Source: Bryobacterales bacterium (lineage in GTDB: Bacteria > Acidobacteriota > Terriglobia > Bryobacterales > UBA6623). Taken from it: a stretch of 64,000 nt of DNA. The stretch spans positions 1,184,001 to 1,248,000 of the forward strand of contig OY729427.2 in the NCBI GenBank assembly GCA_963422375.2, given 5' to 3'. Under the pieces are notes generated by a model, which did no database searches, was not told where the DNA came from, and worked only from the letters and a program-made list of their open reading frames with translations. Positions 38,850 through 59,438 of the stretch are shown piece by piece. A program made the translations under genes and the position numbers. Positions within the stretch are counted from its first letter, which is position 1, and each line of letters opens with the position of its first letter.

Positions 38850-38936
38850 GCCCGGGTGGCGAAACTGGTAGACGCAACGGACTTAAAATCCGTAGTCCGT
38901 CAGGACGTGTGGGTTCGAATCCCACCCCGGGTACCA
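38850..38936 (+). tRNA. tRNA-Leu(UAA)
   Basis: Acceptor GCCCGGG/CCCGGGT, anticodon arm ACGGA-CTTAAAA-TCCGT, long variable arm, GTTCGAAT, encoded CCA. Confidence 0.95.
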
Positions 38937-39206: not shown

Positions 39207-39516
39207 GAAGCGTTTGTCGGGTCGCCCATTCGTGACGCACGCAGCAATCAGTCACCGAATCGTCAACGGGCCCGGCCAGAGATCGCGATTCAACAATTCG
39301 GGCAATCCTCGAGGCGTCTCGCAACACCCCGCCCTCCCGCTGGTCTCAGACGAGTCACCTCATGTGCGACGTCCCGAATCAGGCGGCCACGGAAAGGCTG
39401 CGCTTGGCATTCACAACGCCAAGACATTCCAATATGGCTGAACTCCGATTGGGATATCGAGCGGGACGAGACGACGACCCGCTGGCACGACGCCCTTGCT
39501 TTGATTTCATTGTGTA

Positions 39517-40563
39517 CGGCCGACCAAGCCCCGCGCCATGCGCCGCATCTGTTCCGCCGTTGTTCCGCCGTGTCGCAGTCGCGGTCGTTGCGCCGTCCCG
39601 CGAACTCCGTGAGGTAGCGGCCGAGATGACGGACGCTCATCCGGTGATAGGTGCCGTACAGGCCGCGCTTGAACAGGGACCGAAACGATTCGATGCCGTT
39701 CGTATGCGCCGCCCCGCGCACGTACTCGCCGCCGGAGTGCCTGACGGCTTCGTGCGGGAACTCCGCCATGCCGGCGCAGGCCGCCGCCTCGTCGGAGCGA
39801 ACCTGCGCGCCCGGCGCGACCCGGCCGCGCACGAAGCCCTGCAGGTCGCCCTTGGCGGTGCCCGGCAGCGGCCGCGCGGCCACTGCGTTCGTGGCGCGGT
39901 CCCGCGCCCCCGCCACCGGGGTCTTGCCGACGAGCCCGCGCCCGGCGCGGGCCCTCTTGCTCTCGTGCCGGTTGCGTTCCTTGCCGCCGACGTAGGTCTC
40001 GTCCACCTCCACCGGGCCGGCGAACGGGCCCTGATCCCGCTCCCGGCACGCGCGGATGCGGTGCGCCAGGTGCCAGGCCGACTTCCGGCTGACGCCCGGG
40101 TCGCGGTGCAGCTTCATGCTCGAGACGCCCTTGATGCCGGTGGTCAGCAGGAACAGGGCGACGGCCCGGGTGCGGTAGCCGAGCTTGGTGTCGGCCATCA
40201 CGCTGCCGGTGCGCACGGAAAAGCGCTTGCCGCAGCCGCGGCAACGGTACGGCATCGAAGGGTGGGCCGTGCCGGACTGCACGCTGGAGCCGCGGCAGTG
40301 GGGGCATACCGGACCGTCGGGCCAGCGCATGGAGGCGAACCACTTTTCCGCGGATTCGTCATCGCGGAACATGGCGATCACTTCGATCAATGTGATGCCT
40401 TTACGGAACCACTTTCCGGGACCTGATTTCTTCATTTACGGCATCCCCTACTGGAACTATTCTACCAAAAAACACCACAGAATGTAAACGGAAAATCGGA
40501 GGAAATATGAAATCTTATTATGGCTTGATAATTTGCCTACTTGATTCCCTCGGCACTCCGATA
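39517..40563 (-). mobile_element. IS1595 copy A: 3'-truncated, left IR split by the intron and the composite transposon
   Basis: Near-identical to copies B and C down to about 39517. Transposase starts at 40435; an 11-bp duplication near 39550-39570 shifts the frame; no right IR. Confidence 0.9.
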
Positions 40564-42548
40564 GCCGAGTAGGAGGGGTCGTTGCCGAGCCCCTCCCCTC
40601 ACAGACCCGAGCGTGTGCGTCTAACGCACTCGGTTCCTCGGATGGCAGGTTCGCTCAAGCGAATAGCGGAGCGGTCATGGCGGGCCGGACGCGGGCCGCG
40701 GCAGGGGGTGCCGTCGCAGGAGTTCCTGCATCCGGTTCCAGTTCAGGCGCGATTTCCGGCTGCGTCGCGACAGCCACTTCCGCCAAATCCGAACGACTTG
40801 GCAGTGGAAGCTCGACAGCCGCGCGCTGTTGCCCCGGAGCCCGTAGTAGTTCCCGTGCCCCGCAGCACGCTCGCCAAGTGCTCGCACTGCCGCTGCACCG
40901 CGTCGTGCCGGTGCCTGCGGCACCAGTCGTTCACGGTCCGCAGGGCGCGCGCGAGGCGGCTCCGGGCGGTGGACTGGCGCACGACAGGGTAACCCTTCCG
41001 CGACCGCGCCCAGTAATGGGTGAAGCCGAGGAAATCGAACGTCGCGCCCTTCCCGCGCTTCCGGAGTCGGCGCGGTCGGAAGTCCAGGTACCGTGTCTTG
41101 TCCGGGTGGAGCCGCAGCCCGTACCGCTCGAAGCGCTTGGCCAGCACGGCCAGCACGCGCCGGCCGTCCCGGTCGTGCTCGAAGAGCAGCACGGCGGCGT
41201 CGGCGTAGCGCACCAGCAGGCACCGCTCTTGCAGGCGCGGCTTCGCCTCCCGCTCGAACCATGCATCCAGCACGTGGTGCAGGTACAGGTTCGCCAGCAG
41301 GGGGCTGATCACGCCGCCTTGCGGGGTGCCTTGCCCGGTTCGTTGCAGGACGCCCTCCTCGAGCACCCCGGCCTTGAGCCATTTGTCCAGCATCCGCCGG
41401 ACCACTCCGTCCTTGATCCGCAGGTCGAGGAACTCCCGCAAGTGCTTGTGCGGGATCGTGTCGAAGTATTTCGACACGTCCGCGTCGATCACCCATTGCA
41501 GCCCTGCCCGCGCGCCTGCCCGCACTGCGTGCAAGGCGTCATGGGCGGAGCGGCCCGGGCGGAACCCGTGCGAGCAAGGCAGGAAATCCGCCTCGCATAC
41601 CGGTTCCAGCAGCATCGCGATCGCTCTCTGCGCCACCTTGTCCTCGAACGTGGGGATGCCCAGCGGTCGCGTCGTGCCGTCCGCCTTGGGGATGTTGCGC
41701 CGTCGCACCGGCGGCGCTCAGTAGCTCCCGGACTTGATCCGGCCCAGGAGGTCCGACAGGTTGGCCTCCAAGTCCTTTTCGTAGTCCGAGGCCGTCACGC
41801 CGTCGATGCCCGGCGCGCCGTCCTTGCGCGTCAGCCGGTACGCCTCCTGCATCCATGCGAGGTCGATGCAGCGGTGCAGCGTCTTGAACGCCCATGCGGA
41901 GTGCTCCCGCGCCTGTGCGGCTATCCATTGTCTTGCGTGTACGTGTTCGCGGAACTCATGGTTTCCTCCAGCGTTTCCTTCCCATGGTTCTGTCCATCCG
42001 GCGCCCCCCTTCCCTTGGACGGGTCCCGGTTCCCCGCCGTCGCCAGTACTATGCGGGCGCTACGACTCCCTGCGCTGCATCCCCTCGACTTATTGCTTCG
42101 CCAGCCGGTACCACGCCGCGCCTGCTCGTTCGCTCCCGATCCCCCGCAGACAGGGGCGGGCCCGGATCCGTGGGGTTGGCCGCGATCCGTCTTCCGGCCG
42201 TTTTGCATGGACAGTGCAGGGCCTCCCAGGTTCCCCGGCGAGCCTTCCCGTGGCTATGCGGACGTTCTCTGACCCCGGACGACCCGTTGCGCCTCGCCCT
42301 TGGCGGCGCTTCCGGCGCGGCCCCCGCTATAACAAAAACGAAGGCGTCGACATTGAGGATTTCGAGGCTCCATAGCGTCGCTTTGCCACCCGCTGTGTAC
42401 GCTTCACGACGCGCGTTGCCACGCGCCATGCAACACTCGCTCCCGGCTGGCGGGCTGCGCCTCTGCCGGGCAGGTGTCGAACCTGCTGGCTCGCGGTGCA
42501 AGGTTTCAACTCATCGCATCCTCCTTGCCAGGGCTTGGCCTGGCGCAA
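40564..42548 (-). mobile_element. Group II intron (1985 nt)
   Basis: 5' TTGCG. Domain V GAACCGAGTGCGTTAGACGCACACGCTCGGGTC and a domain VI hairpin ending CTACTCGGC. Removing it rejoins the IS IR (AATTATA|TATC). Confidence 0.92.
40675..41959 (-). pseudogene. ltrA: Intron-encoded RT/maturase, inactivated, no endonuclease domain seen
   Basis: APGIDG, IPKADG..RPLGIPT.ED, GFRPGRS, GTPQGGVISPLLAN, YADA in place of YADD, FDFLGF. Frameshifts near 41930 and 40860; TGA near 41719. Confidence 0.9.
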
Positions 42549-42555
42549 TATAATT

Positions 42556-44072
42556 GGGAATTATATATCTGAGTGCCGAGGGAATCAAGTCAGCAAATTA
42601 TCAAGCCATTATAAGATTTCATATTTCTTCCGATTTTCCGTTGACATTCTGTGGTATTTATTGGTAGAATAGTTCCAGTAAGGGATATCGTAAATGAAGA
42701 AATCAGGTCCCGGAAAGTGGTTCCGTAAAGGCATCACATTGATCGAAGTGATCGCCATGTTCCGCGATGACGAATCCGCGGAAAAGTGGTTCGCCTCCAT
42801 GCGCTGGCCCGACGGTCCGGTATGCCCCCACTGCCGCGGCTCCAGCGTGCAGTCCGGCACGGCCCACCCTTCGATGCCGTACCGTTGCCGCGGCTGCGGC
42901 AAGCGCTTTTCCGTGCGCACCGGCAGCGTGATGGCCGACACCAAGCTCGGCTACCGCACCCGGGCCGTCGCCCTGTTCCTGCCGACCACCGGCATCAAGG
43001 GCGTCTCGAGCATGAAGCTGCACCGCGACCCGGGCGTCAGCCGGAAGTCGGCCTGGCACTTGGCGCACCGCATCCGCGCGTGCCGGGAGCGGGATCAGGG
43101 CCTGTTCGCCGGCCCGGTGGAGGTGGACGAGACCTACGTCGGCGGCAAGGAACGCAACCGGCACGAGAGCAAGAGGGCCCGCGCCGGGCGCGGGCTCGTC
43201 GGCAAGACCCCGGTGGCGGGGGCGCGGGACCGCGCCACGAACGCAGTGGCCGCGCGGCCGCTGCCGGGCACCGCCAAGGGCGACCTGCAGGGCTTCGTGC
43301 GCGGCCGGGTCGCGCCGGGCGCGCAGGTTCGCTCCGACGAGGCGGCGGCCTGCGCCGGCATGGCGGAGTTCCCGCACGAAGCCGTCAGGCACTCCGGCGG
43401 CGAGTACGTGCGCGGGGCGGCGCATACGAACGGCATCGAATCGTTTCGGTCCCTGTTCAAGCGCGGCCTGTACGGCACCTATCACCGGATGAGCGTCCGT
43501 CATCTCGGCCGCTACCTCACGGAGTTCGCGGGACGGTGCAACGACCGCGACTGCGACACGGCGGAACGGATGCGGCGCATGGCGCGGGGCTTGGTCGGCC
43601 GGACGCTGACCTGCCGGCAGCTGACCGGCAAGGCCGCGGTCGCGGCCTGAGCGGCGCCCGCCGCGCTGAGCGCGGCAGCCCGCTGCGGGCGCGCGCTTCA
43701 CGCTCGGTACGAGGGGCGCACCGGATCCGGCATGCCCCGGCGCGACCCCAGTCCGGTCCGGACCGTCCATGCAGGCCGTCGAGCGCCGGGGATCCGCTGT
43801 CTTCGGCCCTCGCAGGGCCTGCAAGCGGCTTGCAAGGCGTGCCCTGCCACCGCCAACCGGGTTTCACTGGGGCAACCGGGGCATGCGAGGCGGCCTCTCT
43901 AGTCCCTTCCTCGTCCAATCCGCTGGCAGGCTCGATTCAGATACGATCCCACACCCCACCCCTCTGTGCCCGCCGCGGCCGCACTCGAATGACCCCAGCT
44001 CGACACCCACCTCCCTGCTCACAGCAGTTCTAGTCGGATATGGCGTTGTCGGCACTCAGATATATAATTCCC
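42556..44072 (+). mobile_element. IS1595 copy B (1517 bp)
   Basis: TIR GGGAATTATATATCTGAGTGCCGA at both ends. Confidence 0.95.
42694..43650 (+). CDS. IS1595 transposase
   Basis: Zn ribbon RWPDGPVCPHC..CRGC, VEVDETY, SDE, HTNGIESF. Confidence 0.93.
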   Translation: MKKSGPGKWFRKGITLIEVIAMFRDDESAEKWFASMRWPDGPVCPHCRGSSVQSGTAHPSMPYRCRGCGKRFSVRTGSVMADTKLGYRTRAVALFLPTTGIKGVSSMKLHRDPGVSRKSAWHLAHRIRACRERDQGLFAGPVEVDETYVGGKERNRHESKRARAGRGLVGKTPVAGARDRATNAVAARPLPGTAKGDLQGFVRGRVAPGAQVRSDEAAACAGMAEFPHEAVRHSGGEYVRGAAHTNGIESFRSLFKRGLYGTYHRMSVRHLGRYLTEFAGRCNDRDCDTAERMRRMARGLVGRTLTCRQLTGKAAVAA

Positions 44073-44352
44073 TAAAGAAAACCCGATGCCCGCCGAAACA
44101 TGCTCGGAACCTGGTTTCACGATGTGGCATTCCGATATCGGTGCGATCGTCAAAGCAGATATTGGCAAGGATGAGTGGGCCGAATTCCGCGCAGAGGCCG
44201 ACAAGCGTTATGGTCATGCTGGCGGCCTACGCAAGAATGCACTCCACATCGGCGCCAGCCTAGCCTTCGCCTGGGAAGACGGAAGACAGTCGAACAGCCT
44301 CGCACAGGTTTGTGCCGCCATCCTGAACCCGCACAACTACGTGTCCGAATGA
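44073..44352 (+). pseudogene. 3' fragment of an unidentified gene cut by the IS
   Basis: Open frame from the IS edge with protein-like sequence (YGHAGGLRKNALHIG..AWE); family not established. Confidence 0.35.
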
Positions 44353-44443
44353 GGCGGCAGAAGCTCAACCAGTCGATATCCTGGCGGCGAGGAGGGTCTG
44401 CCCGACAAGGACTTCAGGGGGACTGGCCAGGCAGAATTACGGG

Positions 44444-46585
44444 TCACATCCAGGCCAGCTTGTTCCGGTCGAGGCGTCTTGTCTGCCTCCGTTTTTCGCC
44501 AGCTCGTTGGGCGACGGCTTGGCCAGCGAGCCAATGTCCCGTGTCGATCCGTGTCCCGTCCAGTTCCACCGGGGCCATCTGCTGGCTCTGCCCGGTCCGG
44601 CAGCCTGGACCGGTCTGCCGTCGCGGCGGGGTCGAGCGGATCGTCCGGGGCACGATGCGGTTGTCCACAACATGCGACCAGTCGAGCTCCCTGCCGCCTC
44701 CGCCGTCGTCCGCCTCATCCGGCAGCGGCGGCGGCTCGGCGCTGTATCCCATGGCGCGGGCGATGACGGTCGCCGCCTGTGAGGCGGCGTCGCGCAGTGC
44801 GCCGTCGTCGGATGGGCGTAGATGGCGGTGGTCTCGCGCTGGCGGTGCCCGAGCAGCCGCCCGACGGTGGTGAGCCCGACGCCGTTCATGACACCCTGCG
44901 AGGCCCACGTGTGCCGGCAGTCGTGGATGCGAAGGCCCGGGCAGTCCGGCTTCTTCGCGGACGCCCACCCAGAACGTGTAAAGGCGATCCGACGTCAGGT
45001 CCTCAGGGAACACTCGCGCCGCGCCTTCGGTCCGTGGCAAGGCCGCGAGCAGCCGCGCTGCTTCCGGCCCGAGCCAGATCGTGCGCGGCCCGGTCTTGGT
45101 GTCTTCGAGCCGCGCGCTCGCGCCGTCCTCGCCCAGCTCGCCGATTTCGTCCCACTTGAGGTCGATGACTTCGGAGAGCCGCGCCCCAGTGAGGGTCAGC
45201 AGGCGGATGGCGGCAACCGGCCAAGGGTGCTCCTCACGGTGTCGGTCCAAGACCGTTCCGAGACGCTCCAGCTCCGCGTGATCGAGATATCGGGCGACGG
45301 GCCTGCGCGGGTTCCTGACGATGTTGGCGCAGGCGTCGGGGACGCCCTCGTCCAGCTCTCCCCACTGGCGGGCGGAGGCGAGCATGGCGCGCAGGATCTC
45401 GAAGGCGCGGTTGGCCGCGCCGGGCTTGTCCGTGCTCGCCGCGTCGAACCATGCCGAGACCCGCACATGGTCGATGGCGTCGTTGACGATGCCGGAGATG
45501 CGTCCCGCCGCCTCGCGGACGTGCTCGTCGGCGAGATGGGCGTAGCGCTCGGTGGAGGCGACATCGGCATGGCCGAGCAGGCGGCCTACGGTGTAGAGGT
45601 CGAGGCCGCTCATCACGGCGTGGGAGGCGAACGTGTGTCGGCAGTCGTGGATGCGCACCTCGTCAAGCCCGGCGAGTTTGCGCAGCTTCTGCCAGCGCAG
45701 GCCGAGGTCCTTCATCGGGCCGTCGCCCGTCCTGTTCGGGAAGAGGAACCGCCCCTCGCGCGGCAGGCCGTTCAGGACGGCCCGTGCGGGCGGCGGAAGC
45801 TGGATCGCCTTCGGCCCGGTCTTCGAGTCAGGCAGGACGGCGCGGGCGCCGCGTATCCAGTCCCATCTGAGGCCCGTGATCTCGGAGGATCGCGCGCCGG
45901 TGAACAGCAGCAGCCGGATCGCGGCGGCGGCCTGCCGGTCCTCGGCGTGATCCAGTACGAAGCCGAGGCGCTTCAGCTCGTCCAGCGAGAGGAAGCGCTC
46001 GCGCGGGGTCGTTTTGTAGCGGCGCATGTTGCGGCAGGGGTTCGAGCCCTGGGGACGAAGGTCCCACAGCTCGGCCTGCCGCATCATGACGGAGAGCACC
46101 GGCAGGGTCCGGTTGGCGTTGCCGGGCGTGCCGCTCATGGAGTCGAACCAGCGCCGCACATCGGCGCGGTCGACCTCCGGGACGCGCATATTGCCAAAGA
46201 AGGGGATGAGATGGCGGTCGATCAGATGGCGGTTGCCTTCCCGCGTGGACGGTTTCCACCGGCGCCCTTGGCGGCGCATGAACTCCGGCACGAAGTCGGC
46301 GAACAGCGGGTCGGCCTGGCGCTCGGCGTTCGCGGCCGCAATGGTCGCGAGGGCTTTGTCTCTCGCCTCGGCGGCGGTCATTTCGTCCGCGGTGCCGAGG
46401 ACGATGTTCTTCGCACCGAACTGGTGCACGACACGGACGAAGAAGGTCTTCGCGCCGCCCGGGAAAACCCGGAAGCCGAACTTCGGCAGGTCGATGTCAT
46501 AGACGGCGAGGCCGCGCGCACCGGGTTTGTGTTCCCTGAAGGTGCGCCGCAGCGCACGCTCGTTGATGGTCGTGTGGATGGGCAT
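44444..46585 (-). CDS. Tyrosine recombinase fused in frame to a second, partial and frameshifted integrase
   Basis: First copy: arm-binding-type N-terminus, GARSSE, DSKTG, HDCRH, LLGH, TERY. Second copy: GARLSE, DTKTG, then after a shift near 44940 HDCRH, LLGH, AIY. Confidence 0.82.
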   Translation of the reverse strand: MPIHTTINERALRRTFREHKPGARGLAVYDIDLPKFGFRVFPGGAKTFFVRVVHQFGAKNIVLGTADEMTAAEARDKALATIAAANAERQADPLFADFVPEFMRRQGRRWKPSTREGNRHLIDRHLIPFFGNMRVPEVDRADVRRWFDSMSGTPGNANRTLPVLSVMMRQAELWDLRPQGSNPCRNMRRYKTTPRERFLSLDELKRLGFVLDHAEDRQAAAAIRLLLFTGARSSEITGLRWDWIRGARAVLPDSKTGPKAIQLPPPARAVLNGLPREGRFLFPNRTGDGPMKDLGLRWQKLRKLAGLDEVRIHDCRHTFASHAVMSGLDLYTVGRLLGHADVASTERYAHLADEHVREAAGRISGIVNDAIDHVRVSAWFDAASTDKPGAANRAFEILRAMLASARQWGELDEGVPDACANIVRNPRRPVARYLDHAELERLGTVLDRHREEHPWPVAAIRLLTLTGARLSEVIDLKWDEIGELGEDGASARLEDTKTGPRTIWLGPEAARLLAALPRTEGAARVFPEDLTSDRLYTFWVGVREEAGLPGPSHPRLPAHVGLAGCHERRRAHHRRAAARAPPARDHRHLRPSDDGALRDAASQAATVIARAMGYSAEPPPLPDEADDGGGGRELDWSHVVDNRIVPRTIRSTPPRRQTGPGCRTGQSQQMAPVELDGTRIDTGHWLAGQAVAQRAGEKRRQTRRLDRNKLAWM

Positions 46586-47074
46586 GGCCGCGTCTCCGTT
46601 GTCTGTTCCCTCGGGCGCCGCCCGCTCCAAGGGAACGGAACGGCGGATTTGGGGAGACGACGCGGCCCGCGCGGGGGATCTAGGCCAGAGGCTGAATCCG
46701 GCCTATCCCCCTATCATGTAATGGAAAACGTCCGGTGAAGGCGGACCGGTCGGGTCTCGCTCCATGCACCGTCGGTGCGTGTGGTGTGAGAACCACGCGC
46801 CGAAGGGCGTCCAGATCGCGCTTCCTGACCGCTCAATCCGTCGGGTGATACTTGCGGAGACAGTCCCCGAACCGCCGCGTGGCTTCCAGGCGGCACTATA
46901 GGAAGCACGAGGTAACAGATCAATGCATGAAGGCGTGCGCACCGGCGGCATCATTTACTCGGCCCGCACTGTCGGCGGCGGTGCCGGCTCGCACGTGACC
47001 GCCGCTGAGCAGTGGCCGCCGCACACGTTCCCGCTGCGCAGGATCGAGCCGTGCACACGTTGCCGCTCCGCAGC

Positions 47075-47222
47075 GTTGCCGCCCGCCGCGCCGGGCTTTC
47101 GGCTGCATCCCCTGAAGGGCAACCGTGCGGGCCAGTGGAGCGTCCGCGTCTCGGGCAACTGGCGCGTGGTGTTCCGCTTCTAGGACGGCGAGGCCGTGGA
47201 CGTGGACCTGATCGACTACCAC
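47075..47222 (+). pseudogene. higB: HigB (RelE-type) toxin, C-terminal remnant
   Basis: PGFRLHPLKGNRAGQWSVRVSGNWRVVFRF*DGEAVDVDLIDYH; N-terminus missing, TAG at 47181. Confidence 0.85.
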
Positions 47223-47243
47223 GGACCGGAGGGAGTGCTGACC

Positions 47244-47558
47244 ATGAACGACATTGCGAACGATCGCGTCGGCCCGATGCAGAACCCGCCGCACTTGGGC
47301 GAACTCATCCGCGAGAGCATGGACGATGTGGGCTGGGACGTGACCGAGACGGCGGCGCGGCTCGGTTGCGAGCGCGGAACGCTGTCGCGGCTGCTGAACG
47401 GCAAGGCGGGAGTGTCCGCGAACATGGCGCTGTCTTTGGAGGACATCGGCTGGGGCACCGCCGAGCACTGGATGCGGATGCAGGCGAGCTACGAGCTTGC
47501 GCAGGCGCGTCGCGAGAGGGTCGCCGCCGAACGGCGTGCGGGCGCGCTGCACGCATGA
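47244..47558 (+). CDS. higA: HigA antitoxin (XRE HTH)
   Basis: MQNPPHLGELIRE, LSRLLNG, WMRMQASYEL. Confidence 0.9.
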   Translation: MNDIANDRVGPMQNPPHLGELIRESMDDVGWDVTETAARLGCERGTLSRLLNGKAGVSANMALSLEDIGWGTAEHWMRMQASYELAQARRERVAAERRAGALHA

Positions 47559-47673
47559 TCGTTTATCGCGCCATCGTGGACGGACGAGCAACTGATCCGG
47601 CGGCTTCCCTTCATCCATTTCCAACCAATTGCACATCGTCCGGTGCTCGGCGCAGAGCGGGCGGCGCGGTCTG

Positions 47674-50490
47674 ATGCGCTTGTCATGGAACGAGGTGCGC
47701 GTCCGCGCCGCCGCCTTCGCGGAGGATTGGAAAGACGCGGCCTACGAGAAGGGCGAGACGCAGAGTTTCTACAACGCCTTCTTCGACGTGTTCGGGGTGC
47801 GGCGTCGGAACGTCGCGCGATACGAGGCTCACGTCGCGAAGCTCGACAACCGCTCGGGCTTCATCGACCTGTTCTGGCCGGGCGTGCTGCTCGTCGAACA
47901 GAAGAGCGCCGGGCGCGATCTCCGCAAAGCGTACGAACAGGCCGGGGAGTATTTCGACGCGCTGCCGGAACGCGAGCGCCCGCGCTTCATCCTGGTGAGC
48001 GACTTCCAGACCTTCGAGCTTCACGATCTTGACGAGGGCGAGACAGTCGTCTTCCCGCTTGCAGACCTGCCGGCGCATGCCGAGTCGTTCGGCTTCATTC
48101 TCGGGGTGCAGCGCCGGACGTTCTGCGACCAGGACCCAGCTAACATCGAAGCGGCCGAGTTGGTCGGGCGTCTGCACGATGCGCTCGCCGATGCCGGACA
48201 CCGGGGTCACGATCTGGAACGTTTCCTCGTGCGGATGGTGTTCTGCATGTTCGCCGACGACACCGGGGTATTCGAGCCGCGCGATATCTTCCTCGACTTC
48301 GTCGAAACGCGCACCAGGGAGGACGGGGCGGATCTCGGGCCGTGGCTCGCGCAACTGTTCGAGGTGCTCGATACGCCGGAGGACGAACGCGCCGCGACGC
48401 TCGACGAGAACCTGGCACGGTTCCCCTACGTCAACGGCGACCTGTTCGAGGGGCATCTGCGGACGTTTTCGTTCGACGCGGCGATGCGCAGGGCGTTGCT
48501 CGATGCTTGCCGCTTCGACTGGTCGAGTATCTCGCCCGCGATTTTCGGCGCGCTCTTCCAGTCGGTGATGGACCCGGCGGAACGCCGGGCGCAGGGGGCG
48601 CACTACACGACCGAGAAGAATATCCTCAAGGTGATCGAGCCGCTGTTCATGGACGACCTGCGCACCGAGTTCGAGCGGGTGCGCAAGCGCCGTGGCCGGC
48701 TCGCGGCGCTCCGCCAGTTCCAGGCGAAGCTCGGCGGCCTGACGTTCTTCGACCCGGCCTGCGGCTGCGGCAACTTCCTCATCATCGCCTACCGGGAATT
48801 GCGGCTGCTGGAAATTGAGGTCATCGGCGAGATACGGAACGAGACCGCTGCGACGGGTCAGACGGTACTCGATGCGGCGTGGCAGTCAGTGGTGGACGTA
48901 GACCAGTTCTACGGGATCGAGCTTGGCGAGTTCCCGGCCCGCATCGCGGAGACCGCGCTGTGGATGATGGACCACATCATGAACAACCGGTTGAGCCTGG
49001 AGTTCGGCCAGACCTTCGTTCGCATTCCGCTGGAGAAGTCGCCTCACATCGTCCATGGCGATTCGCTGGAAATGAACTGGTCCGGTCTGCTGCCATCGGG
49101 CGATTGCTCCTTCGTGCTGGGCAATCCGCCATTCGTGGGCGCGAAGTACCAGACGGCGGAGCAGCGCGCGCAGGTGCGCGGCATTGCGGCGCTCGGTAGG
49201 AGCGGCGGCACGCTCGATTACGTCGCCGCGTGGTTCATCAAGGCGGGAGAATATCTGAAGGGCAGCCGCGCTCGGATCGGCTTTGTCGCGACCAACTCCA
49301 TCACGCAGGGCGAGCAGGTCGCGCAGATATGGCCGGCGCTGTTCGGGCGCTGCAAGCTGGGGATCGCCTTCGCGCATCGGACCTTCGCATGGGGTTCGGA
49401 CGCGCGCGGGAAGGCGCATGTGCATGTCGTCATTCTCGGCCTCGACCGGCGCAAGGCCGCGCGAGCCGAGAAGCGGTTGTTCAGCTATCCCGATATCAAC
49501 GGCGACCCGGAAGAGAGCAGCCATGGCGCGCTGTCGCCGTACCTGTTCGATGCAGGCGGGCTGTCCGACCCGCATCTGGTGGTGCGGGAGGAAAACGCGC
49601 CGATCAACGGCATGGGCCGATTGATTATCGGCTCCAAGCCCATCGACGGAGGCAACTTCATCTTCGACACGGCGGGACGCGATGCGTTTCTGGAAGCCGA
49701 ACCGGAGGCCGCGCCGTGGCTCCGACCGTTCATCGGGGCACGGGAATACCTGCAGGGAGGCGAGCGCTGGATTCTGGCGTTGCACGATGCACCGCCTGAA
49801 GTTCTTGCGCGGCTACCGGGAGTGCGGGAGCGAATCGCCGCCGTCCGCGCCTACCGCGATGCCAGCAAGAGCGCGCCGACGCGGAAGCTCGCGGCGACGC
49901 CGACGCTCTACCACGTCAACGTTATCCCGACCACACCATTTCTGGTGATTCCGAAGGTCAGTTCGGAGCGGCGCGAATACGTGCCGGTGGGTTGGCTGGA
50001 GCCGCCGACCGTCCCCAGCGATCTGGTGTTCGTCCTTCAGGACGCTTCGCTGGTCGATTTCGCCCTCCTGACCTCGGCCATGCACATGGCGTGGCTGCGC
50101 CACGTCGGCGGGCGGCTGAAGAGCGACTACCGCTATTCCATCGGCCTCGTCTACAACACCTTCCCGACACCGCCCGAAGGCGCGGACCTGTCGAAGCTGG
50201 CACCGCTCGCCCAAGCCGTGCTCGACGCCCGCGCTGCACACCCCAACGCGACGCTCGCCGAGCTCTACGCCCCCGACCTCATGCCGCCCACCCTGCGCCG
50301 CGCCCACCAAGCCCTCGACCGCGCCGTGGACCGCCTCTATCGGCGCGTTGGATTCGCTTCCGAGCGCGAGCGAGTGGAGCATCTGTTCGGTCTGTATGAG
50401 AAGATGATGTCTCCGCTGGAAGCGGGGACGAGAACACGTTCGAGACGCCGGACAAAGATCAAGCGAATGGAGCAAGGGACAACCTCATGA
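47674..50490 (+). CDS. MmeI/YeeA-like type IIL/IIG restriction-modification enzyme (nuclease, m6A MTase, TRD)
   Basis: FIDLFWPGVLLVEQK, GAHYT, FFDPACGCGNF, GNPPF, TNSITQGEQ, RLKSDYRYS..VYNTFP. Confidence 0.92.
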   Translation: MRLSWNEVRVRAAAFAEDWKDAAYEKGETQSFYNAFFDVFGVRRRNVARYEAHVAKLDNRSGFIDLFWPGVLLVEQKSAGRDLRKAYEQAGEYFDALPERERPRFILVSDFQTFELHDLDEGETVVFPLADLPAHAESFGFILGVQRRTFCDQDPANIEAAELVGRLHDALADAGHRGHDLERFLVRMVFCMFADDTGVFEPRDIFLDFVETRTREDGADLGPWLAQLFEVLDTPEDERAATLDENLARFPYVNGDLFEGHLRTFSFDAAMRRALLDACRFDWSSISPAIFGALFQSVMDPAERRAQGAHYTTEKNILKVIEPLFMDDLRTEFERVRKRRGRLAALRQFQAKLGGLTFFDPACGCGNFLIIAYRELRLLEIEVIGEIRNETAATGQTVLDAAWQSVVDVDQFYGIELGEFPARIAETALWMMDHIMNNRLSLEFGQTFVRIPLEKSPHIVHGDSLEMNWSGLLPSGDCSFVLGNPPFVGAKYQTAEQRAQVRGIAALGRSGGTLDYVAAWFIKAGEYLKGSRARIGFVATNSITQGEQVAQIWPALFGRCKLGIAFAHRTFAWGSDARGKAHVHVVILGLDRRKAARAEKRLFSYPDINGDPEESSHGALSPYLFDAGGLSDPHLVVREENAPINGMGRLIIGSKPIDGGNFIFDTAGRDAFLEAEPEAAPWLRPFIGAREYLQGGERWILALHDAPPEVLARLPGVRERIAAVRAYRDASKSAPTRKLAATPTLYHVNVIPTTPFLVIPKVSSERREYVPVGWLEPPTVPSDLVFVLQDASLVDFALLTSAMHMAWLRHVGGRLKSDYRYSIGLVYNTFPTPPEGADLSKLAPLAQAVLDARAAHPNATLAELYAPDLMPPTLRRAHQALDRAVDRLYRRVGFASERERVEHLFGLYEKMMSPLEAGTRTRSRRRTKIKRMEQGTTS

Positions 50491-50596
50491 CGGGACATGA
50501 TGCTTTTCAAGCGGTTGCCGCCTATACCAATCGACAATCTGAAGATACATTGATCACCCGCATCCGAATCGGCTCATCCATCGAAGGAAGGAACCA

Positions 50597-50965
50597 ATGA
50601 TCGACGTACTTTCCAGACCTGTCAGTGAAATCACCATCGGCAACATCCGAGCGCTGATCGAATCCAAGATTCCCGAAATCGAGCAGGTTGAATGCAAGGA
50701 AACACTACCCGCTAAGCAGGGTGAAGATCCGTGGATGTCCGGCAAGAATAGGATCGAATGCTACGCAAAATACAAGATCCTTAAAGAGGTCGTTGCCTTT
50801 GCCAATGCTTACGGAGGGGTCCTGCTGTTGGATATCCAAGAATCCAGCACAAAGCTATCGGCAGCTGCAGGAATCAACTCGATCCCGAAATGCGTCGATT
50901 TAGCGGATCGTCTGAAGCTGGTGTTTCGCGATCGTGTGGAGCCTCCTCTTCCTGGGGTGTGTTGA
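50597..50965 (+). pseudogene. Schlafen/AlbA_2 domain protein, truncated by an IS
   Basis: E..QVECK, KEVVAFANAYGGVLLL; the ORF ends inside the IS5-like end. Confidence 0.8.
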
Positions 50966-51265
50966 CACAAGTGCCCCCGTGTGTGGTATGTTTTGCCCTT
51001 GTCGTCCCGGGCGGGAAAAGGGAGGAGAATCAAGCCGGTGGAACTTACGGAAGACCCATGCGGACACATCGCACCGATCCTCCCGAAGCAGCGTGGAAAC
51101 GTCAGTCTGTCGCATCTGCAAGTGCGCAACAAGATCCTCTACGTGGCGGAAAACGACTGCAAGTGGCGCGACCTGGCGCCGCGGTGCGGCAACTGGCACA
51201 CGGTCTACACACGGATGCATCGCTGGTCGAAGAGGGGCGTGCTCGAGCAACTGCAAAGAGACCGT
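50954..51265 (+). mobile_element. IS5-family remnant (DUF4096-type N-terminus)
   Basis: IAPILPKQRG..ILYV..CKWRDL..GNWHTVYTRMHRWSKRGV; putative IR GGGGTGTGTTGACAC. Confidence 0.8.
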
Positions 51266-51359
51266 CATCGTCGATGCGCTGCAGTTCAACGAAGCGTTCA
51301 GAGCCCTGCGTATCGATGCGGTTCGTCGAGATGTACGACGTCGGAAACGCAACATTCCT

Positions 51360-51842
51360 GTGGTGGACCTGCCGTGAAGATGCGGAAGAGGCGATCGACA
51401 CGAGTGTCGTCAGCCCGGCCGTCAGCCGAGCGATGAGCCATTTCCAAAACCGACTTCATGCCATGACGGAGAGGGCGGCTGAGGCGAGGAGCACACGTGA
51501 GGACATCACCGATGCACCCACCCCTTTCTCGGGTTTGTTGTGTAACGAATTCCGTGCTTTCGCCGCACGGTTAAACGCGAATGGCGTTTTCGTTGGCAAG
51601 CTGCGTGACCGTCAAATCGACCCAGATACCATGATGCCCGACTTTCGAAGACGGGTGGCAGACGAGCTGAAGGTGCCGCTTGATGTCGTGGTGGCGCACT
51701 TCGCTGCGCGTCCGGCAGCCCCAACCGAGCAGTTTTCAAAGCAGAAGGCAAGCCATCCACCGGTGCACAGCAAAGCTTCGAGGAGGCAGTACGAACCTCC
51801 GATCTGAACGAGGCTCAGCGGCAGTTCTTGTTGGAGTTCTGA
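51360..51842 (+). pseudogene. Hypothetical protein upstream of the peptidase-helicase; N-truncated and frameshifted
   Basis: AMSHFQNRL..KLRDRQID, then after a shift KAEGKP..QSFEEAVRTSDLNEAQRQFLL; ends 4 bp before the next ATG. Confidence 0.55.
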
Positions 51843-51846
51843 TCTC

Positions 51847-54800
51847 ATGGATCCCTTCGAGCCGATCCGTTCCAAGGCAGTGGCGCTTCATGAGGAGTTG
51901 CACTCCGAGGGCAAAGGCCCGTTGGATCCGCTCGCTCTTGTCGAAGCTGCCGCAAGACACTGCGATCTGGACCTTGTATGGCTGTCGCAGGGTGACCCGG
52001 CACTGCAGGGCGCGCGAGCTTTATACGACGACCAAGGCGGAACGATCTGCTGCGAGGAGGGAGGAGGTACGGCAACCCGTGCGCTACTCGTCGCGCACGA
52101 ACTTGGACATTCCGAACTTCACGCTGGCCCCGCGATTTGCGCCAGTTCCGACATTAATCCCTCGCGGAGCACCGAGACCGCGCCATTTGGCCTGCAGCGT
52201 GTCGAGGACTATGCTGCGCGCGCATGGCGTGAACTTCAAGCCAATGTCTATGTGCGCGAACTACTGTTCCCGCGCGCCTTTGCTCGAGAACTTCACCTCG
52301 AGAACAGCCTGACCGCTGCAGAGATCGCCGACCGAACGAAACTTCCGGGGGCGCTAGTTCGGCAACAGTTGTTCGATACGTTGCTCCTGCCGACCATGGT
52401 AGTCGAAGATGAGGCCACACCCGAGATGCCGCACGTACGCAGGCCCGATCCGTCCCAAGAGCGCACGGCAATCCACCGCGGCAGGCCCTTTCTGTTGCAA
52501 GCAGGGCCGGGAACCGGCAAGACACGAACCTTGGTGAGGCGCGTGCTCTCACTGCTGGCTGAAGGCACCGATCCGGCCGCGATCCTTATTCTTACATTCT
52601 CCAATCGTGCTGCCGGCGAACTGTCGGAGCGACTGACTGCGGCTGTCCCGGACGCTGCGCCCAAACTCTGGATCGGAACGTTCCATGCCTTCGGTTTCGA
52701 TCTCGTGCGGCACTACCACGACAAGCTCGAACTCGCGCCTGATCCCTCACTGTTTGACCGCAGCGACGCAATCGAAGTCCTCGAAGACATCTTTCCCACG
52801 CTGCGTTGGTTCATTACCGCAACCTCTGGGATCCGGTGATGGTGCTCATGGACATCGTTAATGCAATCTCTCGCGCAAAGGATGAAATGGTCGGGCCGGA
52901 GCGCTACCGAGTGCTGGTGAAAGCGATGGAGGCGGAAGCGGTCGGTCGCGATGAGGAGGCGCGGATTGCGGCTGCAAAGTGTCTTGAAATCGCGGATATC
53001 TACGACCTTTATGAAGAGGCACTACGCAAACATGGTGGTGTGGACTTTGGCGACCTGATCATGCGCCCCACCCAGTTACTGGAAGACGATAAAGCCGTTC
53101 GCATTGGCGTGCAGCTCCGCCATCGGCACGTACTCGTCGATGAATATCAGGACGTAAATCGGGCCAGAGCACGTCTTCTGAAGACGGTGGCAGGAAATAG
53201 CAAGCGGCTTTGGGTCGTCGGCGATGCGCGACAGTCGATCTATCGATTTCGTGGCTCTTCCTCCGAAAATATGGCTCGGTTCGGCTCCGATTACCCTGAT
53301 TCTGTAACGGATCATCTGGGCGTCAACTATCGCTCGACCGAGCAGATCGTGCATAGCTTTGTCGCGGTGGCACCGCATATTGGCGCGTCGAACGACATGC
53401 TGACCCTCGAGTTGGAGGCTAATCGGAGGAAAGGACCAAGCCGTCCCGAGATCCGCCGTTTCGAGACGCTGAATGAGGAAGCCGAGGGCGTGGCGGCGAG
53501 TATCCGTCAACTTGAAGAAGCGGGGGTGAGGCTCCGCGACCAGGCGATCCTGTGTCGGACCAACCGGCGGCTGAACGAGATTGCCTCGGCACTGGAGATG
53601 CGCGGCATCCCCGTCCTTCACCTTGGCAGCTTGTTTGAGCGGGAAGAGGTTCGTGACCTGCTAGCCGTGCTTAGCTTAGCCGTCGACCCATTCGGCGACG
53701 CATTGGTTAGGGTCGGCGCGATGCCGCGATACGGTCTGATGCTGCAGCATGTGCACAATGTAAGCCGCTTTCTGCGGTCCCTTCAAGAACCCGCATTGGC
53801 GGGACTTGCGAAGGCGGGGCAAGCACCCGGCCTGTCGACATCGGGGCGGAAAGGCATCAAGCGCCTTGCCGCCGATCTGAACGGCCTGTGCTCAAGCACC
53901 AACGCCTGGAAGTTTCTCGCCATCTTTCTCTTCGATCATACGGACGTGGCCAAGGAGTTGGGCTGTGCGACATCCGTAATGGAGTGCATGCGTGCTGCGG
54001 CAGTCTGGCAATTCCTCAATCTTGTGCGCGAGCAGAGTCCGGTGGGGATGGGACTTCCGATACAGCGCACCCTCGATCGAGTGCGGCAGCTGGTGCTGTT
54101 GCCAGAGGAGCGCGACCTGCGACAAGTTCCAGCCGCAGCATTGCATCTCGACGCCGTTCGGTTGATGACCGTCCACGGCAGCAAGGGACTTGAATTCGAG
54201 GCTGTGCACCTCCCTGGACTGACGGTCGCGAGTTTCCCAAGTTCCAACCGCGGCGAGCGTTGTCCGCCGCCTAGGGACATGATCGATGGATCTGGCAATG
54301 CCTCGCCAAGGGAGGTAGCGAAGCGCGCACATATTGACGAGGAGGAATGCCTGTTTTTCGTGGCGCTGTCGTGCGCCCGGACACACCTCCGTCTCTACCA
54401 TGCGCGAAAGCATTCCAATGGAAGCAATCGCTCCCCGTCGTCATTTCTGAACTGGCTCTCCGGCCGGTATGTCCACGAGATGATCAACCCTCTCAAGCTC
54501 TCGCTTCCCACAAACACCCTGCGGATGCAGCCGGTCGAAGTCAGTTGGCCCACGGATTGGGCGGTGACGGACAGCCGTCTGGGCTCTTACGAGAAATGTC
54601 CACGACGCTTCTTCTATACGCATGCTCTGGGACTGGGCGGCGCTCGGAAGTCTACAGCGTTCTCACGTACGCATGATTGCCTTTACGACTTCCTGCGCTG
54701 GCTTGCCGATGCCCGGCGCATGGGCGAACCTGACTTGGACGAGGCGGAAACCGCCTTCGACGCCATCTGGCAAACTCGCGGGCCGGCAGAGCATGCCCTC

Positions 54801-55280
54801 GCCGCCGATTACCGCAGGCTCGCGTTCCGGCTGATCGCGGCTTTGCTCAAGGCGGGGGCTGGGCAAAGTTTCCACGACGCGCAACCCCTTGCCATCGACT
54901 TTCCCAACGGACGCGTACTTGTGGAGCCCAATGAATTGGCGGAAATGTCCGATGGCACCGTCATCATCCGCCTGGTTCGTACGGGCTACAAGCGGAGCGA
55001 CGAATACGACAGGCTGGAATACACCCTTTATCACCTTGCGGCCCAGAGTCAGTTTGGCGGCAACGCCATTGTGCAGGCGTTGCACTTGACCGACGAAACG
55101 CATGAGCCCGTTGTGATCAGCGGGACCAAGCTCGGCAACCGATGGAAGAAGAGCGATACCATGTTGAGCGGTATCGCCTCCGGCGAGTTTCCGCCGAAGG
55201 TAGACGCTGTGACCTGTCCACGGTGCCCTTACTTCTTCATTTGCCCCTCCGTGCCTAACGGCACCTTGTGGCTCGACTGA
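51847..55280 (+). pseudogene. ImmA/IrrE metallopeptidase + UvrD/SF1A helicase + Fe-S PD-(D/E)XK-like domain; one frameshift near 52800
   Basis: VAHELGH (HExxH), AGPGTGKT, LTFSNRAA, VDEYQD, VGDARQSIYRFRG, NYRS, TVHGSKGLEF, CPRRFFY..CPRCPYFFIC. Confidence 0.88.
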
Positions 55281-55374
55281 TTTCGTACGGAGTAGCCTTT
55301 CCGGGTTCCTGCTCTGCTGGCGATCAAGCCCGGGATTCACGATGGCTGTAGATACGTGACTGCCCGTAAATTTA

Positions 55375-56891
55375 GGGAATTATATATCTGAGTGCCGACA
55401 ACGCCATATCCGACTAGAACTGCTGTGAGCAGGGAGGTGGGTGTCGAGCTGGGGTCATGCGAGTGCGGCCGCGGCGGGCACAGAGGGGTGGGGGGTGGGA
55501 TCGTATCTGAATCGAGCCTGCCAGCGGATTGGACGAGGAAGGGACTGGAGAGGCCGCCTCGCATGCCCCGGTTGCCCCGGTGGAACCGGGTTGGCGGTGG
55601 CAGGGCACCCCTTGCAAGCCGCTTGCAGGCCCTGCGAGGGCCGAAGACAGCGGATCCCCGGCGCTCGACGGCCTGCATGGACGGTCCGGACCGGACCGGG
55701 GTCGCGCCAGGGCATTGCGGATCCGGTGCGCCCCTCGTACCGAGCGTGAAGAGCGCGTCCGCAGCGGGCTGCCGCGCTCAGCGCGGCGGGCGCCGCTCAG
55801 GCCGCGACCGCGGCCTTGCCGGTCAACTGCCGGCAGGTCAGCGTCCGGCCGACCAAGCCCCGCGCCATGCGCCGTATCTGTTCCGCCGTGTCGCAGTCGC
55901 GGTCGTTGTACCGTCCCGCGAACTCCGTGAGGTAGCGGCCGAGATGACGGACGCTCATCCGGTGATAGGTTCCGTACAGGCCGCGCTTGAACAGGGACCG
56001 GAACGATTCGATGCCGTTCGTATGCGCCGCCCCGCGCACGTACTCGCCGCCGGAGTGCCTGACGGCTTCGTGCGCGAACTCCGCCATGCCGGCGTAGGCC
56101 GCCGCCTCGTCGGAGCGGACCTGCGCGCCCGGCGCGACCCGGCCGCGCACGAAGCCCTGCAGGTCGCCCTTGGCGGTGCCCGGCAGCGGCCGCGCGGCCG
56201 CTGCGTTCGTGGCGCGGTCCCGCGCCCCCGCCACGGGCGTCTTGCCGACGGGCCCGCGCCCGGCGCGGGCCTTCTTCCTCTCGTGCTTGTTGCGTTCCTT
56301 GCCGCCGACGTAGGTCTCGTCCACCTCCACCGGGCCGGCGAACGGGCCCTGATCCCGCTCCCGGCACGCGCGGATGCGGTGCGCCAGGTGCCAGGCCGAC
56401 TTCCGGCTGATGCCTAGGTCGCGGTGCAGCTTCATGCTCGAGACGCCCTTGATGCCGGTGGTCAGCAGGAACAGGGCGACGGCCCGGGTGCGGTAGCCGA
56501 GCTTGGTGTCGGCCATCACGCTGCCGGCGCGCACCGAAAAGCGCTTGCCGCAGCCGCGGCAACGGTACGGCATCGAAGGGTGGGCCGCGTCGGACTGCAC
56601 GCTGGAGCCGCGGCAGCGGGGGCACGCGGGACCGTCCGGCCAGCGCATGGAGGCGAACCACTTTTCCGCGGATTCGTCATCGGGGAACATGGCGATCACT
56701 TCGATCAATGTGATGCCTTTACGGAACCACTTTCCGGGACCTGATTTCTTCATTTACGACATCCCCTACTGGAACTATTCTACCAAGAAAAACCACAGAA
56801 TATCAACGGAAATTCGGAAGAAATATGAAATCTTATAATGGCTTGATAATTTGCCGACTTGATTCCCTCGGCACTCAGATATATAATTCCC
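55375..56891 (-). mobile_element. IS1595 copy C (1517 bp)
   Basis: Same TIRs as copy B, inverted. Confidence 0.95.
55797..56753 (-). CDS. IS1595 transposase
   Basis: Near-identical to 42694-43650. Confidence 0.93.
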   Translation of the reverse strand: MKKSGPGKWFRKGITLIEVIAMFPDDESAEKWFASMRWPDGPACPRCRGSSVQSDAAHPSMPYRCRGCGKRFSVRAGSVMADTKLGYRTRAVALFLLTTGIKGVSSMKLHRDLGISRKSAWHLAHRIRACRERDQGPFAGPVEVDETYVGGKERNKHERKKARAGRGPVGKTPVAGARDRATNAAAARPLPGTAKGDLQGFVRGRVAPGAQVRSDEAAAYAGMAEFAHEAVRHSGGEYVRGAAHTNGIESFRSLFKRGLYGTYHRMSVRHLGRYLTEFAGRYNDRDCDTAEQIRRMARGLVGRTLTCRQLTGKAAVAA

Positions 56892-57178
56892 ATATAATTC
56901 CCAATGAATACAGGGGGCTTCTGGTACGGCAGGTGTGACGGGGGCTGTGACACCCCCTGTGACACGGGACTCAGGGGCAGTCACAGGCTGTCACGGCATT
57001 CACGGCTCGATTTCCGGCTCCCGTGTCGTTCAGATGCCCGATGATCGGTTCTGTGATCCGGGTTGTCCAGCCGTTGCCAGGCGTCCCTACACCCTCTCGT
57101 CCGCGTGACCCCGTTCTGCCCGCCGTCTCTCCAGCAGCGGCCGTCCGGTAGCGCTTGGGATGCCGGCTGAACGGTTGC

Positions 57179-57499
57179 TCAGTCTCCGACCTCGCGTAGC
57201 TGGCCGGGCGACATCGCCGCCAGCGCCTTCAGGATGCTGTCGACGAGTGGCCGCAGGTGGACCATGCGGTTCGACGGCGCCCGGATGATCAGTATGCGCA
57301 GGCCGAGGCCGCTCAGGTTTTGCTGGTGGGGGAGACCTCGATCCATGCTCAACAGGGCATCGAAGTACTTGCCTGCTTGCCGGAGCAACGCGCCGTTCTT
57401 CGTTCCCGACCAACCCTCGGCTTGGACGCTGCTGACGTGATGTCCGGCCAGCTCCGGGGCGAGAGCCCGTGGTAGGTTCTCGTCAAGCAGAACGCGCAC
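57179..57499 (-). CDS. DUF5615 PIN-like toxin (VapC45-type)
   Basis: MRVLLDENLP, GWSG.KNG.LL, SMDRGL..QQNL. Confidence 0.88.
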   Translation of the reverse strand: MRVLLDENLPRALAPELAGHHVSSVQAEGWSGTKNGALLRQAGKYFDALLSMDRGLPHQQNLSGLGLRILIIRAPSNRMVHLRPLVDSILKALAAMSPGQLREVGD

Positions 57500-57719
57500 G
57501 GGCCAGAACGAAATCGCGCGCCAGATCCAGCGCAGCGAGCGCCTGTTCCTTCGACACCGAGGGGAACTGGTCGAGGAAATGGTCGAGCGTCTCTCCGCCT
57601 TCCAGGTAGTCGAAGAGAGACTGAACCGGCACTCGCGTGCCGCGAAAGACGGGCGTGCCGCCGGAGATTTCCGGGTCGCTGTGGACGACGGAGGGCGATT
57701 CAGCTCGCATCCGCTCCAT
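57483..57719 (-). CDS. DUF433 antitoxin (VapB45-type)
   Basis: DPEISGGTPVFRGTRVPV..L..G..FL..FP. Confidence 0.92.
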   Translation of the reverse strand: MERMRAESPSVVHSDPEISGGTPVFRGTRVPVQSLFDYLEGGETLDHFLDQFPSVSKEQALAALDLARDFVLARARSA

Positions 57720-57952
57720 AATAGTTCATCAGCCCGCCCGGCGCGGCAACTCCGCCATCGTGGCTCCGAGGCTCGTCGACCGGTGCGCCGGTTGGCGCTC
57801 CAGCCTTCGGCGAGCCCGCCGTATCTTCTGCCAGCCGGACTGCCAGCCGTTTCTGATGCGCTGAGCCGTTTTCTGACGTTTTCTGATGGGTTCTGCTCGC
57901 GATTTTCTCAATGAATACGGGATCTGTTGGACTTGCGGCGCGAAACTGAACC

Positions 57953-57992
57953 GATTACGAATCAGCTGCTCTACCAACTGAGCTACGCCGGC
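57953..57992 (-). pseudogene. 5' half of tRNA-Thr(CGU), probable att-site remnant
   Basis: GCCGGCGTAGCTCAGTTGGTAGAGCAGCTGATTCGTAATC, then no T-arm or 3' acceptor strand. Confidence 0.8.
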
Positions 57993-58176
57993 ATCCCTTT
58001 AGAATCAATGACTTGTGAGGTGGTGCGAGTTTCTGCCAGCCAAACGGTCTGCATCGGCCGGCACAGCGTGCGCTGAGGCAGCCGGGGCAAGCGCGACCGT
58101 GTCCTGATCCTCATCGTCACGATTCCTCTATTGTAGTCGGTTCCCGCCGACGGGCGCGACCCCCGCGCACCCGCCT

Positions 58177-59309: not shown

Positions 59310-59438
59310 ACATTCACCCCACTGGCAGCGGCTTCAAGCGATATCAGGCAGTCCAAGCCGATACCTTGAAATGCTGATTCAAGCAACGTGGAAATTTGAA
59401 TGAGATGCTCGGAAATGCCCGATTTCAGCAATTCCCTT

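Follow-up and report, generated by a model that had tools for sequence, protein, structure and literature searches.

A duplication-bounded pair of inverted IS1595 copies in the terminal repeat of a third copy in a Bryobacterales genome

This report concerns a stretch of 64,000 nucleotides, here called the window, from Bryobacterales bacterium (GenBank assembly GCA_963422375.2, contig OY729427.2, positions 1,184,001 to 1,248,000). The window corresponds to C1:1184001-1248000 of the host genome, G000, which has 6.0 Mb, 67% G+C and three contigs, and which contains about 100 near-full copies of one insertion sequence (IS) of the IS1595 family. Two copies of this IS, B and C, lie in opposite orientation around 11.3 kb of cargo, and the same 8-mer, ATATAATT, is present on both outer sides. 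Very probably, the resulting 14,336-bp unit was transposed once, by its two left ends, into the left inverted repeat (IR) of a third copy, A, which had already received a group II intron. Such an event would explain the outer duplication, the displacement of the GGG tip of A and the inner flanks, which have no match.

The composite unit and its outer duplication

The unit and its flanks are composed of the following features.

42548..42555, + strand: target duplication, left copy, ATATAATT; consists of IR bases 4-10 and the first base of the intron
42556-44072, + strand: IS1595 copy B, 1,517 bp, perfect 24-bp IRs (GGGAATTATATATCTGAGTGCCGA), left end outward
44073..44080, + strand: inner flank of B, TAAAGAAA, left over from an earlier insertion of B
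55367..55374, + strand: inner flank of C, TAAATTTA
55375-56891, - strand: IS1595 copy C, 1,517 bp, perfect 24-bp IRs (GGGAATTATATATCTGAGTGCCGA), left end outward
56892..56899, + strand: target duplication, right copy, ATATAATT, followed by CCC (56900-56902) and then AATGAATA

The first-pass annotation of this DNA described B and C as inverted with their left ends outward, ATATAATT on both sides, and inner flanks that differ from each other and from the outer flanks. All of its coordinates hold. When the copies of the IS were listed with their flanks, as it had suggested, the inner flanks of B and C found no partner beyond chance. The only like-for-like match for TAAAGAAA, at C1:485471, lies in an unrelated reading frame and was judged to be fortuitous; where TAAATTTA recurs, it flanks a copy on contig C2 as that copy's duplication. 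Both were rejected as clues to a donor. Two other routes, one round of replicative inversion and homologous recombination of the two copies with each other, were rejected as well: by our reasoning either would leave an inner copy of the duplication or unchanged outer flanks, and the inner flanks do not fit.

The 252 IR-like ends in the genome provide a measure of how the family duplicates its target. They form 83 adjacent left/right pairs, of which 5 with damaged tips were dropped. Among the remaining 78 paired copies, the 8-bp duplication is exact in 40, has one mismatch in 7 and is lacking in 31, in line with the first-pass statement that 8 bp is the rule for IS1595 elements. The exact duplications are 77% A+T. 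A second test used the ends without a duplication of their own (115 of 235 intact ends), which yield 70 outward pairs within 50 kb. Two of the 70 have the same 8-mer on both sides without a mismatch, where the null model gives a mean of 0.02, and both are units with a left end on each outer side (left-left). Genome-wide, 11 8-mer matches are seen where 1.8 are expected; a single hot spot in the IS body accounts for 3 of the 11. When 116 outward pairs (2.3-50 kb) are sorted by type, matches occur in 2/30 left-left, 0/23 right-right, 3/58 left-right and 1/5 untyped pairs; the three left-right matches and the untyped one are single copies split by nested elements.

The second left-left unit, G000:C2:1781871-1784519, has its own 8-bp duplication, CAAGTTTA. 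Here a complete copy is fused to a left-end stub of 54-64 bp, and a second IS1595 family is nested inside the unit.

The duplication around B and C is thus present as such. That two left ends acted in a single step would be chemically possible, since the left IR does not differ from the right one over 24 bp.

A group II intron in the repeat of copy A

To the left of B lie the remains of copy A and the intron, while the tip of A and its target lie to the right of C.

39514..40563, - strand: IS1595 copy A, IS positions 11-1049 remain, right end lost
40550..40563, - strand: inner 14 nt of the left IR of A, one mismatch; equals the intron 3' exon
40564..42548, - strand: group II intron, 1,985 bp, RF02005 match of 128 bits, domains 5-6 ending at 40564
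56900..56902, - strand: displaced GGG tip of the left IR of A (CCC on the + strand)
56903..56910, + strand: AATGAATA, target 8-mer of A, in a small island

The first-pass annotation had recognized the composite and had proposed that CCC at 56900-56902 completes the IR of A, a proposal now supported by the IR remnant and by the pairing of the intron described below. It had missed the intron itself, as well as a recent homogenization of A with B. The intron sits after base 10 of the left IR of A, which it splits between GGGAATTATA and TATC. It is the only copy in the genome, and its ends, TTGCG at the start and GGC at the end, agree with those of its relatives. Domains 5-6 match RF00029 with 28.8 bits, below the gathering threshold of 40 (E 0.0045). 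The reverse transcriptase (RT) matches RVT_1 and is disrupted both by frameshifts and by an in-frame stop (41719-41721).

Related introns are found in 29 of 30 genus genomes, and the closest of them insert after GGGRATTRYA. GGG occupies positions -10 to -8 at 14 of 30 other distinct intron 5' ends, a set that contains one misaligned end and one intron within an intron, and at 13 of 47 sites overall in a wider set. For introns with a putative exon-binding site 2 (EBS2) that starts with TCCT, as it does here, 9 distinct sites were compared, and 8 of these have GGGG or GGGA at -10 to -7. The putative EBS2 in the window pairs at only 1 of 4 positions with the exon now next to the intron, CCCA (-10 to -7), versus 4 of 4 with the GGGA found to the right of C. 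Because this pairing is found 14.3 kb away, the sequence from 56900 onward would once have adjoined the intron, and thus the intron would have come first and the block second. This exon evidence is independent of the duplication statistics. The two lines of evidence bear out the earlier claim that the whole unit was transferred as a single block, with the left IR of A as its target.

The other side of the junction points to the same origin. In the relatives G015 and G023, the element right of C extends leftward without an IS and without ATATAATTCCC, which indicates that AATGAATA is the target of copy A and that the 11-mer formed by ATATAATT and CCC is derived from the IR. The G015 sequence left of that target has no real counterpart in G000, suggesting that the DNA on the left was lost along with the right end of A.

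Introns of this kind are seen near IS1595 elements in other genomes as well. An IS1595 transposase adjoins both intron copies in G021 and one copy in G022. Of 15 intron 3' ends examined across four genomes, 3 have an IS1595 domain no more than 2.5 kb away. At one locus, L077 (G021:C5:414500-427500), inverted intron copies fill both IRs of a single IS1595 element, and each of these copies in turn has a further intron inserted at base 41. In G001 the related intron is arranged in head-to-tail arrays with an exact period of 2,010 bp and up to five copies (C2:1597794-1605853, C3:3761598-3767647 and others), and there are 47 intron 5' ends in that genome. The accessible portion of PMC7306698 states that introns often reside in mobile elements; among the papers listed by our literature searches, none pairs introns with IS1595.

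Relationships among copies A, B and C

Copies B and C each have an open transposase frame of 318 aa (42694-43650 in B, 55797-56753 in C), as do 20 of 87 copies when these two are included. The B protein contains the DDE-region motifs, with two conserved Tyr residues changed to Cys, and the C protein has every motif that was checked. PF12760 and PF12762 (Zn-ribbon and DDE_Tnp_IS1595) are above cut-off in the transposases of A, B and C, and NF033547 scores 146 and 168 bits for B and C against a cut-off of 75. From the shape of its IR, we presume that the IS belongs to the ISNwi1-like subgroup.

Divergence was measured over IS positions 140-1000 in 80 copies (3,160 pairs), for which the median is 4.8%. 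Copies B and C, 96.5% identical overall, are 3.5% apart and rank 437 among the pairs. They would therefore be independent insertions, and a recent inverted duplication as the source of B and C is ruled out. Copies A and B, at 0.46%, are the closest of all pairs and share three alleles present in no other copy. No other neighbors approach this value (23 pairs within 20 kb, the next lowest at 1.5%). The similarity is confined to the body of the element: A and B have 4 differences over IS positions 134-1012 and 11 over positions 11-133, where the divergence of 8.9% equals the median value among copies. This pattern of identity indicates that homogenization of the body of A with B followed the arrival of the unit; it probably happened in the same event that removed the right end of A. 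There are no identical pairs among the copies, and the events at this locus are old.

Proposed order of events

The locus can be accounted for by four steps. Copy A would have come first, with AATGAATA as its target in a small island that occurs genus-wide; this site is uninterrupted in relatives. The group II intron would then have retrohomed into the left IR of A after base 10 by pairing with GGGA-ATTATA, as the target rule of its relatives suggests. Next, B and C, having inserted independently with their left ends outward, would have come to bracket 11.3 kb of island DNA. An IS1595 DDE transposase would have synapsed them as one 14,336-bp composite and joined this to the AT-rich ATATAATT in the IR of A; repair would have duplicated the 8-mer and pushed the GGG tip of A 14.3 kb away. 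Finally, the body of A would have been homogenized with its inverted neighbor B, perhaps by conversion or template switching, the right end of A and the DNA to its left would have been lost, and the cargo would have decayed. A local donor, within the same genome, is favored.

Alternative explanations

Several observations weigh against a single transposition of the whole unit. No donor site, empty site for the third step or second whole unit was found in 40 relatives or in the genome itself, and none of the 40 relatives carries the cargo as a block, so the empty site and the second home for the cargo that the first-pass annotation had proposed to look for did not turn up; the form of the empty site is deduced by an indirect route, through the IR and the exon of the intron. 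In addition, B and C are not sister copies, which would make the unit an opportunistic one, and the best relatives of this IS in 30 genus genomes are at most 73-75% identical. The 31 of 78 copies that lack a duplication imply that secondary rearrangement is common here. On the intron side, EBS1 pairs with the exon at only 5 of 6 positions, and the EBS assignments are based on position and complementarity. Finally, the contigs from public sequencing runs that cover the left junction, discussed below, include only 26 letters of the IS, which is below the 31-letter rule for bridging, and the junction at C is outside the stretch that was compared.

One alternative is a cointegrate followed by a flip. 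A single IS would have been present at ATATAATT, a circle made of an IS and the cargo would have recombined into it to give two direct copies, and one of these would then have been inverted through its own 24-bp IRs. The part of PMC3004938 available to us reports inversion of an IS by recombination between 23-bp terminal repeats at 2 of 22 Wolbachia loci, and the sections of PMC12561309 at hand describe a pseudo-compound transposon of the IS1595 family with direct copies, Tn7560. A flip would also be traceless, given that the left and right IRs are identical. However, this pathway needs three steps rather than one. A direct two-copy unit with a shared duplication is absent among the 58 left-right outward pairs, versus two left-left units, and the second left-left unit ends in a stub that has no right IR with which to flip. 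We consider this pathway improbable.

Still less probable is a series of independent insertions in which the cargo never moved as a block. B would have inserted into the IR of A, an adjacent deletion would have taken the tip of A, and C would have arrived separately, with the 11 bp of ATATAATT-CCC arising by slippage of the tip of C or from another piece of an IR. At the right junction the sequence can indeed be read as a tandem 11-mer, and short tandem duplications are frequent in this IS: they make up 53 of 105 insertions of at least 5 nt in 83 copies, and 12 are of length 11. The copies without a duplication fit this idea as well. However, we estimate the chance of an 11-nt duplication at the first base of a given tip as about 1e-4, and none of the 53 tandem duplications lies within 30 nt of a tip, a count for which detection is limited by the alignment ends. 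The slipped piece would also have to complement the gap at the B junction exactly, in the right orientation and from 14 kb away. Moreover, an IR-like flank is present at only 3 of 235 ends, and two of these three are the B/C pair.

The least credible of the alternatives is a misassembly at this multi-copy IS. With about 100 near-full copies, a misjoin is conceivable; no single record spans the unit, and the comparison of reads stopped short of the C junction. For this comparison, 4 of 20 matching public runs were used, over 40545-55410, and runs X1-X15, in which the shares were small, were set aside; some runs may derive from the sample of the assembly itself. Contigs of X17, X18 and X20 extend from the intron through the duplication to 42581, that is, across the left junction, and contigs of all four runs join the right end of B to the cargo, likewise with only 26 letters of the IS. 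In X17 and X18 the RT region of the intron is without differences. Against a misassembly, the junction k-mers were recovered from two studies, in three or four runs, the assembly has only three contigs, the median divergence among copies would let long reads resolve them, and a chance misjoin would not rebuild both an 8-bp duplication and the GGG exon of the intron.

Cargo

The cargo comprises 11.3 kb of defense-type island DNA, largely pseudogenes.

44794..46585, - strand: two tyrosine integrases in tandem, one P4-like (370 aa) that reads through into another, which is partial and frameshifted
47083..47558, + strand: remnant of higBA; HigB is a fragment interrupted by a stop (47181-47183), HigA (47196-47558) is full length
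47674..50490, + strand: MmeI-type Type IIG/IIL restriction-methylase, 938 aa, open
50597..51436, + strand: AlbA_2 fragment and IS5-family transposase fragment
51376..55327, + strand: frameshifted small gene and a peptidase-M78/UvrD/PD-(D/E)xK helicase; helicase frameshift near 52803

The earlier description of the cargo as defense-like is right as to the kind of genes, which are those of defense-type islands, and not as to their state: most are broken, and only the MmeI-type gene and HigA are full length. The MmeI-type gene has all five Pfam domains (MmeI N, helicase spacer, methylase, TRD and C) in a single open reading frame, scores 1156 bits as IIG in PADLOC, and includes the motifs DPACGCGNF, NPPF and D..EQK. 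HigBA is not an intact toxin-antitoxin pair, as HigB is broken. Judged from its sequence, the unit today is largely a fossil, with the MmeI-type gene and HigA as the sole parts that might still function. A partnership of the cargo integrase with flanking tRNA sites did not emerge; no tRNA is present in six related loci.

Pieces of the cargo, only of the MmeI gene and higBA, occur in 28 of 41 genomes, never as the whole block. Within G000, a 1.2-kb piece of the 3' part of the MmeI gene, 99% identical (9 substitutions and one 26-nt gap), is found at C1:1321986-1323174, 74 kb beyond the end of the window. It is fused to a 39-bp stub of an IS right end (C1:1321947-1323174), followed by two more IS. 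This duplicate implies that the cargo was once duplicated in this chromosome. It fits a move within the genome and may be a remnant of the donor or of a sister unit.

Co-occurring strains visible in runs X16-X20 have related cargo, partly intact and at greater depth, and near the helicase frameshift their contigs carry one extra base. A locus search that started from the helicase confirmed no related locus. Homology with intact relatives of the helicase, which are 76-84% identical, stops at 55327, 47 nt before C. In these relatives, the helicase gene is preceded by a sigma-like gene and a small gene and lies directly upstream of genes for Ubl-like, DUF7665, JAB-like and ThiF-like proteins (a block present at L072, L073 and L074). 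Three of the four Pfam hits behind these last assignments are below curated cut-offs. The downstream genes would correspond to the Bil-type operon set, given as Ubl, E2, JAB and E1 in the available part of bioRxiv 10.1101/2024.11.21.623953; the peptidase-helicase has no occurrence in the main text of that preprint as far as it was accessible. Compared with Bil operons, the helicase in the window is frameshifted and the four downstream genes are not found in G000, and no Bil-type set is recovered there. A tblastn search of G000 at E 1e-4 gave no match for seven downstream proteins from two relatives, nor for the sigma-like protein.

Target choice and setting

The first-pass annotation had suggested that the AT-rich IR is a preferred target. 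The IRs constitute 0.07% of bases and 5.2% of the target space when this is weighted by the AT-rich profile of the family, under which ATATAATT scores about 550 times the average site. Composition predicts about 6 IR insertions among about 118, a figure that is an overestimate because the IRs accumulated over time; those seen are the B/C event and one doubtful flank. The suggestion of a preference is therefore not upheld. Its AT-richness is enough to make the IR a good target; homing of IS1595 to its own IR is not needed, and it was rejected because a general AT preference suffices. Elsewhere inside family members lie 8 of 235 ends.

Other insertions into the family were seen along the way. 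Repeated self-insertion of the family marks a hot spot at IS positions about 166-174, at the start of the transposase, with TTACGAAA or TTTCGTAA flanks (for example G000:C1:1735662, C2:2145328, C2:2301774 and C2:3087581). A TA-targeting element has ends (TAGTGCYYGTGACA) at window positions 815-845 and 24759-24789, and genome-wide 13 of its 126 ends are inside an IS1595 IR. A further IS with GAGCCTTTTGCAAAA ends is found at the inner edge of the IS1595 IR (G000:C2:3806-8132 and C2:1710849).

A wider reading, which we offer tentatively and consider doubtful, is that this IS1595 transposase is able to bring two left ends together and to transpose over 14 kb, perhaps preferentially (left-left 2/30, right-right 0/23, no two-copy direct unit). 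Under the same reading, the 24-bp IR might be a shared insertion site for four or more kinds of element, namely the intron lineage homing to GGGRATTRYA, the TA-targeting element, the further IS at the inner edge of the IR and the family's own composite; such insertions would disable ends and may help to end the expansion of the IS. The papers listed by our literature searches gave no description of left-left pairing or of moves over 14 kb for the IS1595 family.

To the left, the mobile cluster is delimited by one conserved landmark.

38850..38936, + strand: tRNA-Leu(TAA), the last conserved landmark on the left side of the mobile cluster

The gene order plsX-MFS-tRNA-Leu is common to the window and its genus relatives. 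To the right of the unit, the small island at 56903-58600, common to G015 and G007, carries a DUF433/DUF5615 pair, an integrase-like remnant and, at about 57950-57995, a tRNA-Thr-like sequence of which the 5' half is present. A second IS1595 family with CCTGATTACC ends occupies 59437-60490 and has 91 genome hits with a span over 800 nt.

Comparison with known systems

Tn5 and Tn10, built from IS50 and IS10 of the IS4 family, are composite transposons with an inverted IS pair. The unit in the window resembles them in that two opposite copies of one IS bracket the cargo and the outer duplication has the length typical of the family. Unlike Tn5 and Tn10, it belongs to the IS1595 family with an 8-bp duplication, and its copies, 3.5% apart, are unrelated members of an expansion to about 100 copies. 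It also has no selected intact cargo save the MmeI-type gene, and it is known from one copy, with no spread. It gives no evidence of a new kind of element or of a working defense package; it is an ordinary composite transposon, real and well ordered in time. The nesting preserves a rare order of events, from IS to intron to composite to conversion and decay, with an internal check provided by the pairing of the intron with its exon.

The intron is comparable to RmInt2 of Sinorhizobium meliloti GR4, which, according to the part of PMC4615759 available to us, retrohomes into the IRs of ISRm17, likewise by EBS-IBS pairing of a group II intron with an IS repeat. Unlike RmInt2, the intron in the window is of a different lineage (TTGCG start, GGC end), uses another IS and the motif GGGRATTRYA, and belongs to a group of which only some targets adjoin an IS1595 transposase.

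In our literature search, no inverted, duplication-bounded IS1595 composite stood out, which is weak evidence of absence, as most subscription journals lay outside its coverage. Compound and pseudo-compound transposons are distinguished in PMC12561309, the accessible text of which assigns direct copies to the pseudo-compound transposon, or translocatable unit. As B and C are inverted, the unit is not of that type; by its sequence it would work like a compound transposon in the sense of the same text, and it has the features of one that were tested. With Tn7560 and its ISApl4 (IS1016 subgroup), as described in those sections of PMC12561309, it shares the IS1595 family, AT-rich 8-bp repeats, copies that bracket cargo and a copy-rich genome. 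In the same description, Tn7560 has direct copies without 8-bp repeats at its bounding copies, whereas the copies here are inverted and the outer duplication is exact. The unit thus provides clean natural evidence that elements of the IS1595 family, which flank resistance genes in other bacteria, can form true inverted composites bounded by a duplication.

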